IMG/VR virus record: IMGVR_UViG_2861074659_000002 | Origin: a virus | Lineage: Duplodnaviria; Heunggongvirae; Uroviricota; Caudoviricetes | Direction: 5' to 3' (one strand) | DNA length: 64,000 bases | Shown: in pieces, positions 15,676 to 45,057 of the stretch | Position numbering within the stretch: position 1 is the first letter of the stretch | How the letters are laid out: the number at the start of each line of letters is the position of its first letter | Program-made: the position numbers and the translations under genes | Notes under the pieces: model-generated | What the model was told of the DNA's origin: nothing | The model's database searches: none | What the model saw: only the letters and a program-made list of their open reading frames with translations

Positions 15676-15699
15676 CGACAGGTTACGGGGCGGCGACCT
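15676..15699. other. cos: cos site (cosN); right end ...CAGGTTACG joined to left-end 12-nt cohesive sequence GGGCGGCGACCT
   Basis: Exact lambda cohesive-end sequence at 15688..15699 followed by Nu1 190 nt downstream. Confidence 0.9.
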
Positions 15700-38369: not shown

Positions 38370-39602
38370 TCAATTGTTCATAGTGTTTACATCACCGCCA
38401 ATTGCTTTTAAGACTGAACGCATGAAATATGGTTTTTCGTCATGTTTTGAGTCTGCTGTTGATATTTCTAAAGTCGGTTTTTTTTCTTCGTTTTCTCTAA
38501 CTATTTTCCATGAAATACATTTTTGATTATTATTTGAATCAATTCCAATTACCTGAAGTCTTTCATCTATAATTGGCATTGTATGTATTGGTTTATTGGA
38601 GTAGATGCTTGCTTTTCTGAGCCATAGCTCTGATATCCAAATGAAGCCATAGGCATTTGTTATTTTGGCTCTGTCAGCTGCATAACGCCAAAAAATATAT
38701 TTATCTGCTTGATCTTCAAATGTTGTATTGATTAAATCAATTGGATGGAATTGTTTATCATAAAAAATTAATGTTTGAATGTGATAACCGTCCTTTAAAA
38801 AAGTCGTTTCTGCAAGCTTGGCTGTATAGTCAACTAACTCTTCTGTCGAAGTGATATTTTTAGGCTTATCTACCAGTTTTAGACGCTCTTTAATATCTTC
38901 AGGAATTATTTTATTGTCATATTGTATCATGCTAAATGACAATTTGCTTATGGAGTAATCTTTTAATTTTAAATAAGTTATTCTCCTGGCTTCATCAAAT
39001 AAAGAGTCGAATGATGTTGGCGAAATCACATCGTCACCCATTGGATTGTTTATTTGTATGCCAAGAGAGTTACAGCAGTTATACATTCTGCCATAGATTA
39101 TAGCTAAGGCATGTAATAATTCGTAATCTTTTAGCGTATTAGCGACCCATCGTCTTTCTGATTTAATAATAGATGATTCAGTTAAATATGAAGGTAATTT
39201 CTTTTGTGCAAGTCTGACTAACTTTTTTATACCAATGTTTAACATACTTTCATTTGTAATAAACTCAATGTCATTTTCTTCAATGTAAGATGAAATAAGA
39301 GTAGCCTTTGCCTCGCTATACATTTCTAAATCGCCTTGTTTTTCTATCGTATTGCGAGAATTTTTAGCCCAAGCCATTAATGGATCATTTTTCCATTTTT
39401 CAATAACATTATTGTTATACCAAATGTCATATCCTATAATCTGGTTTTTGTTTTTTTGAATAATAAATGTTACTGTTCTTGCGGTTTGGAGGAATTGATT
39501 CAAATTCAAGCGAAATAATTCAGGGTCAAAATATGTATCAATGCAGCATTTGAGCAAGTGCGATAAATCTTTAAGTCTTCTTTCCCATGGTTTTTTAGTC
39601 AT
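38370..39602 (-). CDS. ea47: Ea47 accessory protein (410 aa from Met at 39602; ORF extends to 39629), function unknown
   Basis: Low-GC b-region ORF at lambda ea47 position. Confidence 0.7.
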   Translation of the reverse strand: MTKKPWERRLKDLSHLLKCCIDTYFDPELFRLNLNQFLQTARTVTFIIQKNKNQIIGYDIWYNNNVIEKWKNDPLMAWAKNSRNTIEKQGDLEMYSEAKATLISSYIEENDIEFITNESMLNIGIKKLVRLAQKKLPSYLTESSIIKSERRWVANTLKDYELLHALAIIYGRMYNCCNSLGIQINNPMGDDVISPTSFDSLFDEARRITYLKLKDYSISKLSFSMIQYDNKIIPEDIKERLKLVDKPKNITSTEELVDYTAKLAETTFLKDGYHIQTLIFYDKQFHPIDLINTTFEDQADKYIFWRYAADRAKITNAYGFIWISELWLRKASIYSNKPIHTMPIIDERLQVIGIDSNNNQKCISWKIVRENEEKKPTLEISTADSKHDEKPYFMRSVLKAIGGDVNTMNN

Positions 39603-40192
39603 AAAACTCTCCATTTTGATAGGTTGCATGCTAGATGCTGATATATTTTAGAGGTGATAAAATTAACTGCTTAACTGTCAATGTAATACAAGTTGTTTGA
39701 TCTTTGCAATGATTCTTATCAGAAACCATATAGTAAATTAGTTACACAGGAAATTTTTAATATTATTATTATCATTCATTATGTATTAAAATTAGAGTTG
39801 TGGCTTGGCTCTGCTAACACGTTGCTCATAGGAGATATGGTAGAGCCGCAGACACGTCGTATGCAGGAACGTGCTGCGGCTGGCTGGTGAACTTCCGATA
39901 GTGCGGGTGTTGAATGATTTCCAGTTGCTACCGATTTTACATATTTTTTGCATGAGAGAATTTGTACCACCTCCCACCGACCATCTATGACTGTACGCCA
40001 CTGTCCCTAGGACTGCTATGTGCCGGAGCGGACATTACAAACGTCCTTCTCGGTGCATGCCACTGTTGCCAATGACCTGCCTAGGAATTGGTTAGCAAGT
40101 TACTACCGGATTTTGTAAAAACAGCCCTCCTCATATAAAAAGTATTCGTTCACTTCCGATAAGCGTCGTAATTTTCTATCTTTCATCATATT

Positions 40193-41083
40193 CTAGATCC
40201 CTCTGAAAAAATCTTCCGAGTTTGCTAGGCACTGATACATAACTCTTTTCCAATAATTGGGGAAGTCATTCAAATCTATAATAGGTTTCAGATTTGCTTC
40301 AATAAATTCTGACTGTAGCTGCTGAAACGTTGCGGTTGAACTATATTTCCTTATAACTTTTACGAAAGAGTTTCTTTGAGTAATCACTTCACTCAAGTGC
40401 TTCCCTGCCTCCAAACGATACCTGTTAGCAATATTTAATAGCTTGAAATGATGAAGAGCTCTGTGTTTGTCTTCCTGCCTCCAGTTCGCCGGGCATTCAA
40501 CATAAAAACTGATAGCACCCGGAGTTCCGGAAACGAAATTTGCATATACCCATTGCTCACGAAAAAAAATGTCCTTGTCGATATAGGGATGAATCGCTTG
40601 GTGTACCTCATCTACTGCGAAAACTTGACCTTTCTCTCCCATATTGCAGTCGCGGCACGATGGAACTAAATTAATAGGCATCACCGAAAATTCAGGATAA
40701 TGTGCAATAGGAAGAAAATGATCTATATTTTTTGTCTGTCCTATATCACCACAAAATGGACATTTTTCACCTGATGAAACAAGCATGTCATCGTAATATG
40801 TTCTAGCGGGTTTGTTTTTATCTCGGAGATTATTTTCATAAAGCTTTTCTAATTTAACCTTTGTCAGGTTACCAACTACTAAGGTTGTAGGCTCAAGAGG
40901 GTGTGTCCTGTCGTAGGTAAATAACTGACCTGTCGAGCTTAATATTCTATATTGTTGTTCTTTCTGCAAAAAAGTGGGGAAGTGAGTAATGAAATTATTT
41001 CTAACATTTATCTGCATCATACCTTCCGAGCATTTATTAAGCATTTCGCTATAAGTTCTCGCTGGAAGAGGTAGTTTTTTCAT
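40193..41083 (-). CDS. ea31: Ea31 accessory protein (296 aa) with HNH-type nuclease motif
   Basis: CPFCGD...IDHFLPIAHYPEFSVMPINLVPSCRDCNMGEKG resembles HNH endonuclease (Cys pairs flanking His-Asn-His-like core); 4-nt overlap with ea59. Confidence 0.75.
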   Translation of the reverse strand: MKKLPLPARTYSEMLNKCSEGMMQINVRNNFITHFPTFLQKEQQYRILSSTGQLFTYDRTHPLEPTTLVVGNLTKVKLEKLYENNLRDKNKPARTYYDDMLVSSGEKCPFCGDIGQTKNIDHFLPIAHYPEFSVMPINLVPSCRDCNMGEKGQVFAVDEVHQAIHPYIDKDIFFREQWVYANFVSGTPGAISFYVECPANWRQEDKHRALHHFKLLNIANRYRLEAGKHLSEVITQRNSFVKVIRKYSSTATFQQLQSEFIEANLKPIIDLNDFPNYWKRVMYQCLANSEDFFRGI

Positions 41084-42657
41084 TGTACTTTACCTTCATC
41101 TCTGTTCATTATCATCGCTTTTAAAACGGTTCGACCTTCTAATCCTATCTGACCATTATAATTTTTTAGAATGGTTTCATAAGAAAGCTCTGAATCAACG
41201 GACTGCGATAATAAGTGGTGGTATCCAGAATTTGTCACTTCAAGTAAAAACACCTCACGAGTTAAAACACCTAAGTTCTCACCGAATGTCTCAATATCCG
41301 GACGGATAATATTTATTGCTTCTCTTGACCGTAGGACTTTCCACACGCAGGATTTTGGAACCTCTTGCAGTACTACTGGGGAATGAGTTGCAATTATTGC
41401 TACACCATTGCGTGCATCGAGTAAGTCGCTTAATGTTCGTAAAAAAGCAGAGAGCAAAGGTGGATGCAGATGAACCTCTGGTTCATCGAATAAAACTAAT
41501 GACTTTTCGCCAACGACATCTACTAATCTTGTGATAGTAAATAAAACAATTGCATGTCCAGAGCTCATTCGAAGCAGATATTTCTGGATATTGTCATAAA
41601 ACAATTTAGTGAATTTATCATCGTCCACTTGAATCTGTGGTTCATTACGTCTTAACTCTTCATATTTAGAAATGAGGCTGATGAGTTCCATATTTGAAAA
41701 GTTTTCATCACTACTTAGTTTTTTGATAGCTTCAAGCCAGAGTTGTCTTTTTCTATCTACTCTCATACAACCAATAAATGCTGAAATGAATTCTAAGCGG
41801 AGATCGCCTAGTGATTTTAAACTATTGCTGGCAGCATTCTTGAGTCCAATATAAAAGTATTGTGTACCTTTTGCTGGGTCAGGTTGTTCTTTAGGAGGAG
41901 TAAAAGGATCAAATGCACTAAACGAAACTGAAACAAGCGATCGAAAATATCCCTTTGGGATTCTTGACTCGATAAGTCTATTATTTTCAGAGAAAAAATA
42001 TTCATTGTTTTCTGGGTTGGTGATTGCACCAATCATTCCATTCAAAATTGTTGTTTTACCACACCCATTCCGCCCGATAAAAGCATGAATGTTCGTGCTG
42101 GGCATAGAATTAACCGTCACCTCAAAAGGTATAGTTAAATCACTGAATCCGGGAGCACTTTTTCTATTAAATGAAAAGTGGAAATCTGACAATTCTGGCA
42201 AACCATTTAACACACGTGCGAACTGTCCATGAATTTCTGAAAGAGTTACCCCTCTAAGTAATGAGGTGTTAAGGACGCTTTCATTTTCAATGTCGGCTAA
42301 TCGATTTGGCCATACTACTAAATCCTGAATAGCTTTAAGAAGGTTATGTTTAAAACCATCGCTTAATTTGCTGAGATTAACATAGTAGTCAATGCTTTCA
42401 CCTAAGGAAAAAAACATTTCAGGGAGTTGACTGAATTTTTTATCTATTAATGAATAAGTGCTTACTTCTTCTTTTTGACCTACAAAACCAATTTTAACAT
42501 TTCCGATATCGCATTTTTCACCATGCTCATCAAAGACAGTAAGATAAAACATTGTAACAAAGGAATAGTCATTCCAACCATCTGCTCGTAGGAATGCCTT
42601 ATTTTTTTCTACTGCAGGAATATACCCGCCTCTTTCAATAACACTAAACTCCAACAT
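41080..42657 (-). CDS. ea59: Ea59 accessory protein (525 aa), P-loop ATPase (ABC/AAA_21/OLD-like)
   Basis: Walker A GRNGCGKTT and Walker B-like LVLFDEPEVHLHP motifs. Confidence 0.75.
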   Translation of the reverse strand: MLEFSVIERGGYIPAVEKNKAFLRADGWNDYSFVTMFYLTVFDEHGEKCDIGNVKIGFVGQKEEVSTYSLIDKKFSQLPEMFFSLGESIDYYVNLSKLSDGFKHNLLKAIQDLVVWPNRLADIENESVLNTSLLRGVTLSEIHGQFARVLNGLPELSDFHFSFNRKSAPGFSDLTIPFEVTVNSMPSTNIHAFIGRNGCGKTTILNGMIGAITNPENNEYFFSENNRLIESRIPKGYFRSLVSVSFSAFDPFTPPKEQPDPAKGTQYFYIGLKNAASNSLKSLGDLRLEFISAFIGCMRVDRKRQLWLEAIKKLSSDENFSNMELISLISKYEELRRNEPQIQVDDDKFTKLFYDNIQKYLLRMSSGHAIVLFTITRLVDVVGEKSLVLFDEPEVHLHPPLLSAFLRTLSDLLDARNGVAIIATHSPVVLQEVPKSCVWKVLRSREAINIIRPDIETFGENLGVLTREVFLLEVTNSGYHHLLSQSVDSELSYETILKNYNGQIGLEGRTVLKAMIMNRDEGKVQ

Positions 42658-43259
42658 ATAGTAACCCTTAATTTTATTAAAATAACCGCAATTTATTTGG
42701 CGGCAACACAGGATCTCTCTTTTAAGTTACTCTCTATTACATACGTTTTCCATCTAAAAATTAGTAGTATTGAACTTAACGGGGCATCGTATTGTAGTTT
42801 TCCATATTTAGCTTTCTGCTTCCTTTTGGATAACCCACTGTTATTCATGTTGCATGGTGCACTGTTTATACCAACGATATAGTCTATTAATGCATATATA
42901 GTATCGCCGAACGATTAGCTCTTCAGGCTTCTGAAGAAGCGTTTCAAGTACTAATAAGCCGATAGATAGCCACGGACTTCGTAGCCATTTTTCATAAGTG
43001 TTAACTTCCGCTCCTCGCTCATAACAGACATTCACTACAGTTATGGCGGAAAGGTATGCATGCTGGGTGTGGGGAAGTCGTGAAAGAAAAGAAGTCAGCT
43101 GCGTCGTTTGACATCACTGCTATCTTCTTACTGGTTATGCAGGTCGTAGTGGGTGGCACACAAAGCTTTGCACTGGATTGCGAGGCTTTGTGCTTCTCTG
43201 GAGTGCGACAGGTTTGATGACAAAAAATTAGCGCAAGAAGACAAAAATCACCTTGCGCT

Positions 43260-43500
43260 AATGCTCTGTTACAGGTCACTAATACCATCTAAGTAGTTGA
43301 TTCATAGTGACTGCATATGTTGTGTTTTACAGTATTATGTAGTCTGTTTTTTATGCAAAATCTAATTTAATATATTGATATTTATATCATTTTACGTTTC
43401 TCGTTCAGCTTTTTTATACTAAGTTGGCATTATAAAAAAGCATTGCTTATCAATTTGTTGCAACGAACAGGTCACTATCAGTCAAAATAAAATCATTATT
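43260..43500. other. attP: attP attachment site, common core GCTTTTTTATACTAA at 43408..43422, flanked by AT-rich arm sequences
   Basis: Exact lambda att core with phage sequence on both sides (b region left, int right). Confidence 0.9.
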
Positions 43501-44566
43501 TGATTTCAATTTTGTCCCACTCCCTGCCTCTGTCATCACGATACTGTGATGCCATGGTGTCCGACTTATGCCCGAGAAGATGTTGAGCAAACTTATCGCT
43601 TATCTGCTTCTCATAGAGTCTTGCAGACAAACTGCGCAACTCGTGAAAGGTAGGCGGATCCCCTTCGAAGGAAAGACCTGATGCTTTTCGTGCGCGCATA
43701 AAATACCTTGATACTGTGCCGGATGAAAGCGGTTCGCGACGAGTAGATGCAATTATGGTTTCTCCGCCAAGAATCTCTTTGCATTTATCAAGTGTTTCCT
43801 TCATTGATATTCCGAGAGCATCAATATGCAATGCTGTTGGGATGGCAATTTTTACGCCTGTTTTGCTTTGCTCGACATAAAGATATCCATCTACGATATC
43901 AGACCACTTCATTTCGCATAAATCACCAACTCGTTGCCCGGTAACAACAGCCAGTTCCATTGCAAGTCTGAGCCAACATGGTGATGATTCTGCTGCTTGA
44001 TAAATTTTCAGGTATTCGTCAGCCGTAAGTCTTGATCTCCTTACCTCTGATTTTGCTGCGCGAGTGGCAGCGACATGGTTTGTTGTTATATGGCCTTCAG
44101 CTATTGCCTCTCGGAATGCATCGCTCAGTGTTGATCTGATTAACTTGGCTGACGCCGCCTTGCCCTCGTCTATGTATCCATTGAGCATTGCCGCAATTTC
44201 TTTTGTGGTGATGTCTTCAAGTGGAGCATCAGGCAGACCCCTCCTTATTGCTTTAATTTTGCTCATGTAATTTATGAGTGTCTTCTGCTTGATTCCTCTG
44301 CTGGCCAGGATTTTTTCGTAGCGATCAAGCCATGAATGTAACGTAACGGAATTATCACTGTTGATTCTCGCTGTCAGAGGCTTGTGTTTGTGTCCTGAAA
44401 ATAACTCAATGTTGGCCTGTATAGCTTCAGTGATTGCGATTCGCCTGTCTCTGCCTAATCCAAACTCTTTACCCGTCCTTGGGTCCCTGTAGCAGTAATA
44501 TCCATTGTTTCTTATATAAAGGTTAGGGGGTAAATCCCGGCGCTCATGACTTCGCCTTCTTCCCAT
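43496..44566 (-). CDS. int: Integrase Int, full length (356 aa), tyrosine recombinase
   Basis: Ends ...HELRSLSARLYEKQISDKFAQHLLGHKSDTMASQYRDDRGREWDKIEIK with catalytic region present. Confidence 0.95.
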   Translation of the reverse strand: MGRRRSHERRDLPPNLYIRNNGYYCYRDPRTGKEFGLGRDRRIAITEAIQANIELFSGHKHKPLTARINSDNSVTLHSWLDRYEKILASRGIKQKTLINYMSKIKAIRRGLPDAPLEDITTKEIAAMLNGYIDEGKAASAKLIRSTLSDAFREAIAEGHITTNHVAATRAAKSEVRRSRLTADEYLKIYQAAESSPCWLRLAMELAVVTGQRVGDLCEMKWSDIVDGYLYVEQSKTGVKIAIPTALHIDALGISMKETLDKCKEILGGETIIASTRREPLSSGTVSRYFMRARKASGLSFEGDPPTFHELRSLSARLYEKQISDKFAQHLLGHKSDTMASQYRDDRGREWDKIEIK

Positions 44567-44762
44567 TTCTGATCCTCTTCAAAAGGCCACCTGTTACTGG
44601 TCGATTTAAGTCAACCTTTACCGCTGATTCGTGGAACAGATACTCTCTTCCATCCTTAACCGGAGGTGGGAATATCCTGCATTCCCGAACCCATCGACGA
44701 ACTGTTTCAAGGCTTCTTGGACGTCGCTGGCGTGCGTTCCACTCCTGAAGTGTCAAGTACAT
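44544..44762 (-). CDS. xis: Excisionase Xis (copy 2)
   Basis: Identical translation to copy 1. Confidence 0.95.
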   Translation of the reverse strand: MYLTLQEWNARQRRPRSLETVRRWVRECRIFPPPVKDGREYLFHESAVKVDLNRPVTGGLLKRIRNGKKAKS

Positions 44763-45057
44763 CGCAAAGTCTCCGCAATTACACGCAAGAAAAAACCGCC
44801 ATCAGGCGGCTTGGTGTTCTTTCAGTTCTTCAATTCGAATATTGGTTACGTCTGCATGTGCTATCTGCGCCCATATCATCCAGTGGTCGTAGCAGTCGTT
44901 GATGTTCTCCGCTTCGATAACTCTGTTGAATGGCTCTCCATTCCATTCTCCTGTGACTCGGAAGTGCATTTATCATCTCCATAAAACAAAACCCGCCGTA
45001 GCGAGTTCAGATAAAATAAATCCCCGCGAGTGCGAGGATTGTTATGTAATATTGGGT

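Follow-up and report, generated by a model that had tools for sequence, protein, structure and literature searches.

The genes ea59 and ea31 of phage lambda were examined in a 64,000-nucleotide stretch of viral DNA (the window) from a member of the Caudoviricetes (IMG/VR record IMGVR_UViG_2861074659_000002). Positions 38000-45000 of the window were 100% identical to the lambda records NC_001416 and J02459 and to several lambda derivatives, and lambda positions were converted to window positions by adding 15,684. A first-pass annotation, made without database searches, had proposed that the two genes form a Septu/OLD-like anti-phage module in which a P-loop ATPase is followed by an HNH nuclease. 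The comparisons reported here support a candidate anti-phage module of the Septu-like type.

The sizes of both products, the 4-nt overlap and the span of 40193-42657 given in the first-pass annotation were confirmed from the open reading frame (ORF) list; the minus strand had been left unstated. The features of the locus are listed below, with their source in brackets.

41080-42657, minus strand: ea59 coding sequence, 525 aa, predicted A subunit (ABC-type ATPase, PtuA-like; PADLOC PDC-M01A) (ORF list)
40193-41083, minus strand: ea31 coding sequence, 296 aa, predicted B subunit (HNH-type nuclease, remote PtuB homologue; PADLOC PDC-M01B) (ORF list)
41080-41083, minus strand: ATGA overlap, with the ea59 stop TGA inside the ea31 start ATG (sequence)
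42665-42669, minus strand: Shine-Dalgarno sequence of ea59, AAGGG (read from sequence)
43408-43422, no strand assigned: attP core GCTTTTTTATACTAA (annotated as misc_recomb at 27724-27738 in J02459, with int binding sites annotated around it)

A Shine-Dalgarno-like GAAGG was also found 9 nt upstream of the ea31 start, and the ATGA overlap would give translational coupling of the two genes. The GC content of the ea59-ea31 region was 0.35-0.39, versus 0.53-0.60 in the structural-gene arm, so the earlier description of the pair as lying in a low-GC region by attP was correct. The probability of a stop-free run at the local base composition was approximately 9e-17 for 525 codons and 9e-10 for 296 codons, and hundreds of full-length homologues were found for each protein. 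Chance ORFs were excluded on both grounds.

Homologous loci numbered 140, made up of 80 from bacteria (one genome per species), 56 from viral contigs and 4 from Vibrio. At 133 of them the Ea59 homologue was followed directly, on the same strand, by an Ea31 homologue, and the seven exceptions consisted of six contig ends and phage O276. When only the non-lambda loci with sufficient DNA were counted, the Ea31 homologue was directly downstream in 118 of 118. The commonest junctions between the two genes were a 4-nt overlap (64/133) and a 1-nt overlap (16/133). Identities of the Ea59 and Ea31 homologues to their lambda counterparts were correlated across loci (r = 0.93).

Two candidates for a third component were rejected. 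The gene ea47 (38370-39629, minus strand, 419 aa) had no Pfam, NCBIfam or PADLOC match and no family assignment beyond PHROG 19262 (unknown function), and it accompanied ea59-ea31 only in lambda copies; it is therefore regarded as a separate orphan gene. The ORFs upstream of the ATPase gene in E. coli and in Vibrio were unrelated to each other, which removed the case for a conserved upstream gene. Because ea47 is linked only in lambda and the upstream ORFs are unrelated, the conserved unit is exactly two genes.

The full pair was present in 67 of 5,426 complete E. coli genomes, and those listed were mostly laboratory strains derived from K-12. Interrupted copies were also seen. In phage O276, a lambda derivative, a deletion joins ea59 codons 1-355 to ea47, and in E. 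coli ATCC BAA-196 an IS2 element splits the match to the pair in two; each is a natural knock-out of ea59-ea31. The DE3 lysogens BL21(DE3), C43(DE3) and BAP1 retain only the first 870 nt of ea59 (41788-42657) and lack ea31, so that the expression strains in widest use carry a truncated module. Lambda DNA at 100% identity was also found in assemblies labelled Chromatiales, Shewanella canadensis, Pseudomonas, Oceanobacillus, Neobacillus, Bradyrhizobium, Kitasatospora and others. The lambda contigs were about 48.4-48.5 kb long in three cases (two of them with about 1x and about 10x coverage) and shorter in the rest, some with about 1x coverage. This lambda DNA is almost certainly control or spike-in contamination, and the labelled organisms are not true hosts.

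Ea59 passed the Pfam thresholds for AAA_21 (62 bits, cut-off 27) and AAA_15 (49.2 bits, cut-off 32.1), in agreement with its first-pass placement among the ABC/AAA_21-type ATPases. In PADLOC it matched PDC-M01A (8e-202, residues 3-521) and the PtuA model PDLC00282 (E 8.8e-185, full length); the next matches were to other PtuA models, AriA and MADS3, at 1e-25 to 1e-13. The top NCBIfam match was retron PtuA, at 49.7 bits versus a cut-off of 500. Motif invariance was read from an alignment of 28 homologues, and the features of the protein are as follows.

42049-42075, minus strand: Walker A / P-loop GRNGCGKTT, residues 195-203, invariant in the 28 homologues, with the pattern at 134 of 140 loci
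41554-41565, minus strand: ABC signature SSGH, residues 365-368, invariant, aligning with the PtuA signature region (hhalign)
41461-41499, minus strand: Walker B and D-loop LVLFDEPEVHLHP, residues 387-399, with the pattern DE[PI][ED].[HG]LH at 139 of 140 loci
41380-41388, minus strand: H-loop THS, residues 424-426, with T424, H425 and S426 invariant, aligning to the PtuA HSP motif (hhalign)
42103-42657, minus strand: N-terminal domain, residues 1-185, beta-rich then helical, family-specific

The Walker B/D-loop stretch, which reads LxLxDEPExHLHP across the 28 homologues, is the part of Ea59 that aligns to solved PtuA and OLD chains; Q258 is invariant as well. The N-terminal domain had no Pfam family and no PDB sequence match. 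Its invariant residues include W28, N29, D30, K55 and Q61, it was modelled in the monomer with a predicted local distance difference test (pLDDT) score of about 70-90, and it is a possible sensor or assembly domain. The C-terminus of the monomer model is helical (residues 467-520). Ea59 is thus predicted to be an ABC-type (Rad50/SMC/OLD-like) ATPase that carries an additional conserved domain at its N-terminus. An Ea59 homologue of Ectopseudomonas mendocina, 54% identical, is named 'phage Hau3 resistance protein' in one source, a name that may hint at an older phage-resistance annotation for a related ATPase.

The catalytic core of Ea31 is located as follows.

40628-40771, minus strand: HNH zinc-finger catalytic core, residues 105-152, with C108-x2-C111, D121-H122, N138 and C143-x2-C146-N147

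C108, C111, D121, H122, N138, C143, C146 and N147 were all invariant among the 28 homologues, the core patterns were found in 130-131 of 133 B proteins, and these residues align with the CxxC...H...N...C columns of PtuB. The core is a four-cysteine zinc-finger HNH with asparagine in the last position (CxxCN). All the motifs quoted in the first-pass annotation (GRNGCGKTT and LVLFDEPEVHLHP in Ea59; GEKCPFCGD...IDHFLPIAH...CRDCNMGEKG in Ea31) were present. Its HNH signature stood as far as the invariant core residues are concerned, but the match of Ea31 to Pfam HNH fell under the threshold (E 0.032), as did that to the PtuB family TIGR02646 (13.5 bits, cut-off 52). Full-length support came from PADLOC PDC-M01B (5.8e-113, residues 1-294), and Ea31 also matched PHROG 10378, labelled 'HNH endonuclease'. 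The profile support that the first-pass annotation had proposed to seek was thus obtained from PDC-M01A and PDC-M01B, the PtuA model, AAA_21 and AAA_15, but not from Pfam HNH or TIGR02646.

No family was found for the N-terminal and C-terminal regions of Ea31, and part of the C-terminal region is helical in the monomer model (residues 203-287). The zinc-dependent HNH core was modelled poorly by AlphaFold (pLDDT below 50), and in a Foldseek search of the model against the PDB, PtuB was top-ranked with an E-value of 0.7, which is not significant. The family is moderately large: among 1.84 billion representatives, 463 clusters at 50% identity matched Ea31 with E<=1e-30, and 2,118 with E<=1e-10.

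Direct searches of solved structures gave weak local matches for Ea59 (retron-type PtuA at 9e-5 and the OLD protein 6p74 at E 3e-4), while Ea31 matched PtuB at E 0.18, or 0.025 with a profile. Because these searches were not decisive alone, a profile-profile comparison with canonical pairs was run. The canonical set consisted of ptuA-ptuB pairs from plasmids of Klebsiella, Vibrio, Rhizobium, Burkholderia, Bacillus thuringiensis and Clostridioides, together with a lone PtuB-like HNH gene from a Pantoea plasmid. Between the Ea31 and PtuB families the alignment probability was 97.4% (E 1.1e-11), with Ea31 residues 93-220 set against PtuB residues 31-148, a span covering the HNH core and about 70 residues more. 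The Ea59 family aligned to the PtuA family with 98.6% probability (hhalign, E 1.1e-15) over the signature-to-H-loop lobe and beyond. By these alignments both proteins are predicted to be remote homologues of Septu components; Ea31 would be an HNH nuclease of the CCCC-zinc type, homologous to PtuB in its core and in the helical region after it. The more specific link to Septu is the nuclease partner rather than the ATPase.

The likeness to stand-alone Septu (e.g. PDB 8EE4/8EE7; E. coli Septu Ec-B88) extends to gene order, with an ABC-type ATPase gene followed by an overlapping HNH gene in a two-gene operon. Septu defence depends on Walker A and B residues in PtuA and on HNH residues in PtuB (PMC13096335), and Ea59 and Ea31 conserve these. 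There are also clear differences. The Walker A motif of stand-alone PtuA lies at about residue 31 and that of Ea59 at 195, so stand-alone PtuA has no equivalent of the Ea59 N-terminal domain of ~185 residues. Ea31 has 296 aa versus about 215 for PtuB, making it about 80 residues longer; some 90 residues at its N-terminus had no match, its C-terminal third did not align, and its last metal-ligand position is N (CxxCN), not H. Expression in lambda, in addition, would be bound to the lytic pL transcript. Canonical PtuB proteins matched the PADLOC PtuB models at 1e-69 to 1e-102, with no PDC-M01B among the matches listed.

Among the criteria used for Septu, a co-oriented, adjacent ATPase-then-nuclease operon is found in ea59-ea31, an ABC/OLD-type ATPase with Walker A, signature, Walker B and H-loop in Ea59, and the catalytic HNH (beta-beta-alpha-metal) residues in Ea31. 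Membership of the TIGR02646 / PtuB HNH family is lacking in Ea31, and for that reason ea59-ea31 is not canonical Septu. The first-pass label of Septu/OLD-like is therefore retained for the remote PtuA/PtuB homology and the shared architecture, but not as canonical Septu, and its OLD part holds for the ATPase domain only, as no Toprim domain was present. A canonical Septu pair on the Clostridioides difficile plasmid pZ1322HCD0031-2 (B protein versus PADLOC PtuB, 4e-102) directly follows holin and amidase genes. This plasmid is an apparent phage-plasmid, and the pair looks like a further Septu-type module on a phage-like element.

The best full-length matches of both proteins were to the PADLOC candidate system PDC-M01, at the E-values given above, and the two genes are adjacent as that system specifies. 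For Ea31 and the Ea31-like proteins tested, down to 25% identity, the top 25 PADLOC matches were nearly all PDC-M01B; PDC-M62B also appeared for two of them, and PtuB models for none. The PDC systems are unpublished computational candidates in PADLOC, and PADLOC at times labels the same proteins as Septu and as PDC-M01, as it did 41 times in one survey of Bacillus genomes (PMC11811056). The pattern of PADLOC and TIGR02646 matches and the extra unmatched domains of Ea59 and Ea31 lead us to place the family in a clade separate from canonical Septu, corresponding to the candidate system PDC-M01. A literature search found no paper testing Ea59, Ea31 or PDC-M01.

Other known systems resemble the pair in the ATPase. 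Proteins of the OLD family (P2 Old, GajA of Gabija) have an ABC ATPase domain related to that of Ea59, and Ea59 matched 6p74 and DUF2813 weakly, but OLD carries a Toprim nuclease on the same polypeptide, whereas the nuclease partner of Ea59 is a separate HNH protein. No Toprim domain was detected in Ea59 or Ea31 by Pfam at E-values up to 0.1. The resemblance is confined to the ATPase lobe, and an OLD nuclease identity was rejected for want of a Toprim domain. AriA of PARIS also matched Ea59 weakly; its partner is the Toprim-like AriB, not an HNH protein. Type I-A retrons (retron-Eco7/Ec78, Ec83) have PtuA/PtuB as effectors, and in two retron loci examined a reverse transcriptase gene lies upstream of ptuA, whereas the neighbours of ea59-ea31 are attP/int and ea47. 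No retron RNA family was found by Rfam in 38000-45000, where the sole match was to IS009, outside the operon. With neither a reverse transcriptase nor msr/msd RNA beside the pair, a retron association was rejected.

The neighbourhoods of homologous pairs were also inspected. In Vibrio parahaemolyticus the pair is part of a small island that also encodes two integrases and a DUF3987 protein, adjoining a HerA-like (DUF87) gene and an unannotated 402-aa neighbour. An E. coli pair with 65% identity, for which the contig collection has 649 indexed blocks, shares its island with an integrase, AlpA, RadC and an SMC_N/CTD1/MComp1 conflict system. In Ectopseudomonas mendocina the pair is a bare two-gene insert amid housekeeping genes. 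At eight unrelated bacterial loci a type I restriction-modification (R-M) operon (hsdM...hsdR) lies directly upstream on the same strand, and in six of the eight the end of hsdR coincides with the start codon of the ATPase gene, which suggests that R-M plus ATPase-HNH is a recurrent composite. Lamassu genes lie beside two further loci. A tyrosine recombinase was found within 10 kb at 13 of 47 genome loci and 11 of 29 viral loci. These neighbourhoods are of the kind expected of a defence cassette carried as mobile-element cargo.

In lambda itself, the sequence between int and ea59 bears on when the pair could be expressed. A consensus scan found no sigma-70-like site on the minus strand from the ea59 start (42657) to int (43496), although a weak or non-canonical promoter could escape such a scan. 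The simple promoter/terminator scan missed a hairpin that was found by reading and folding the sequence.

43220-43269, minus strand: tI intrinsic terminator (sib region), between int/attP and ea59, with a hairpin of -24.3 kcal/mol (z-score -4.65) followed by a U6 run

From established lambda biology we take this hairpin to be the tI/sib terminator. Because it intervenes, transcription entering ea59 from int must be antiterminated. The name 'Ea' denotes early, N-dependent products of the pL transcript. Integration at attP parts ea59-ea31 from pL-int in a single prophage, and in a review of lysogen transcription the sole lambda genes given as expressed are cI, rexAB, lom and bor (PMC7067206). 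Activity is therefore probably confined to lytic growth or the period after induction, rather than the lysogen. The first-pass suggestion that prophage defence genes reside here accordingly agrees with the location of the pair but not with its probable lytic timing, given the terminator upstream and the lack of a promoter-like site. Both genes are non-essential in a CRISPR interference (CRISPRi) map (PMC10695390), and the region is routinely deleted in engineered lambdas and vectors (b-region deletions; PMC7580223).

The window is not one lambda genome, and its best matches are imm21-type derivatives. Its bases 1-306 are a TEM-1 bla fragment joined at the lambda BamHI site within int. Positions 313-20661 recur at 43655-64000 with 99.7% identity and a period of 43,342, and cos occurs at 15688 and 59027. 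The arrangement looks like a tandem lysogen, with an engineered bla-carrying lambda followed by an int+ copy, and the window's copy of ea59-ea31 is therefore placed at the internal attP junction.

We consider it fairly probable that ea59-ea31 is a two-gene, ATPase-controlled nuclease module of the Septu kind. This reading builds on the genes, motifs, homology, strict pairing and genomic contexts described above, from which we infer that the proteins form an ATP-controlled complex, as well as its trigger, its substrate and an anti-phage outcome. In stand-alone Septu the PtuA assembly is hexameric and ATP-inhibited, with a reported response to a phage tail-fibre protein, and PtuB attaches by its helical C-terminal domain to C-terminal extensions of PtuA that are paired (PMC12819146). 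In vitro, PtuAB introduces nicks into supercoiled DNA; the stoichiometry of Septu is 6:2. By analogy, Ea59 and Ea31 would be produced in a fixed proportion through translational coupling and would probably form an oligomer in which the ATPase scaffold restrains the nuclease. The nuclease might be freed by a foreign phage component, an unusual nucleic acid (e.g. single-stranded DNA) or a fall in ATP, with the family-specific N-terminal domain of Ea59 as the candidate sensor. Supercoiled DNA (by nicking) or a tRNA would be possible targets of Ea31, and the outcome would be that a competing phage, or the infected cell, stops replicating. Transcription would come only from N-antiterminated pL transcripts crossing int and attP, so that the module would act in early lytic growth, after induction or in a derepressed tandem lysogen such as that in the window, and not in a stable single lysogen.

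An ATP- and single-strand-DNA-dependent endonuclease was reportedly purified from lambda-infected cells in 1982 and reportedly mapped to the b region. A bolder version of the Septu-kind reading, in which lambda deploys the pair as a lytic-cycle weapon rather than as prophage immunity, is tentative and in our view somewhat doubtful. The pair would then be expressed from the N-antiterminated pL transcript minutes after infection or induction, would protect the infected cell from rivals (co-infecting or resident phages, plasmids, satellites) or reshape the host's tRNA or DNA pool to suit lambda, would use the Ea59 N-terminal domain as its sensor, and would be the 'novel lambda endonuclease' of 1982.

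The same enzyme may also be claimed by a different role, in which the pair is not an immunity system and serves as an accessory nuclease of lambda's own lytic DNA metabolism, acting on replication or recombination intermediates or attacking host or plasmid DNA. One annotation does name ea59 'ATP-dependent endonuclease' (a literature search for the 'ben' endonuclease returned nothing relevant), and the lytic timing agrees with such a role. We nevertheless find it unlikely, as growth does not require the genes (PMC10695390) and lambda vectors routinely carry b-region deletions (PMC7580223). Most homologous pairs, moreover, occur in bacterial chromosomes or islands, often stand-alone or within type I R-M operons, and the closest characterised relatives are immunity proteins. 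The pairing data contradict the proposal that Ea31 is a selfish homing-type HNH or an HK97-like packaging-associated HNH with Ea59 as an unrelated neighbour, which we regard as very improbable. All 118 non-lambda loci keep the ATPase-HNH order with start-stop overlap and the two proteins co-diverge (r = 0.93), which is at odds with it, even though free-standing HNH genes are common in phages, the PHROG 10378 label reads simply 'HNH endonuclease' and the composition of the region is foreign. Ea31, with 296 aa and conserved N- and C-terminal domains, is also far bigger than a homing HNH module, and ea31 is not beside terminase genes. No intron, intein or disrupted target was noted at the loci inspected, where no dedicated test for them was made.

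The pair could also be a toxin-antitoxin (TA)-like addiction or abortive-infection cassette that stabilises its mobile element, the ATPase being an AbiEii/AAA_21-type 'toxin' partner and not a phage sensor. Pfam describes AAA_21 as 'putative AbiEii toxin, Type IV TA system' and one homologue is so named, cassettes of this family sit at the ends of integrative elements beside integrases, and overexpression of PtuAB is toxic (PMC12445682). Lambda without the b region is nonetheless stably maintained and propagated (PMC7580223, PMC10695390), and the pair is truncated in BL21(DE3), IS2-interrupted in ATCC BAA-196 and partly deleted in O276 without evident harm to the strains. Addiction as the function is thus quite unlikely, although a module that behaves like a TA system may also serve in defence.

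Since the genes, the annotations of their domains and the candidate family had all been recorded before, the novelty of the assignment is modest. Its interest lies in a testable function for long-unassigned genes, as ea59 and ea31 are among the last sizeable function-less genes of the best-studied phage, and in the possible deployment of such a nuclease by a phage from an early lytic transcript. Placement in the Septu superfamily points to defined residues, namely K201 (P-loop) and D391/E392 (Walker B) in Ea59 and H122/N138 (nuclease) in Ea31, and would make the lambda pair a tractable model for the large PDC-M01 clade. Its apparent early lytic expression could show how immunity-type nucleases serve in phage-phage competition and not in host defence alone. 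Because many lambda vectors, DE3 lysogens and engineered therapeutic lambdas delete or truncate ea59-ea31, strains would differ in carrying an active nuclease module.

The Rfam IS009 match noted above lies at 38000-38198 on the plus strand (224 bits versus a gathering score of 117), inside the tail-fibre-assembly region (orf-194).

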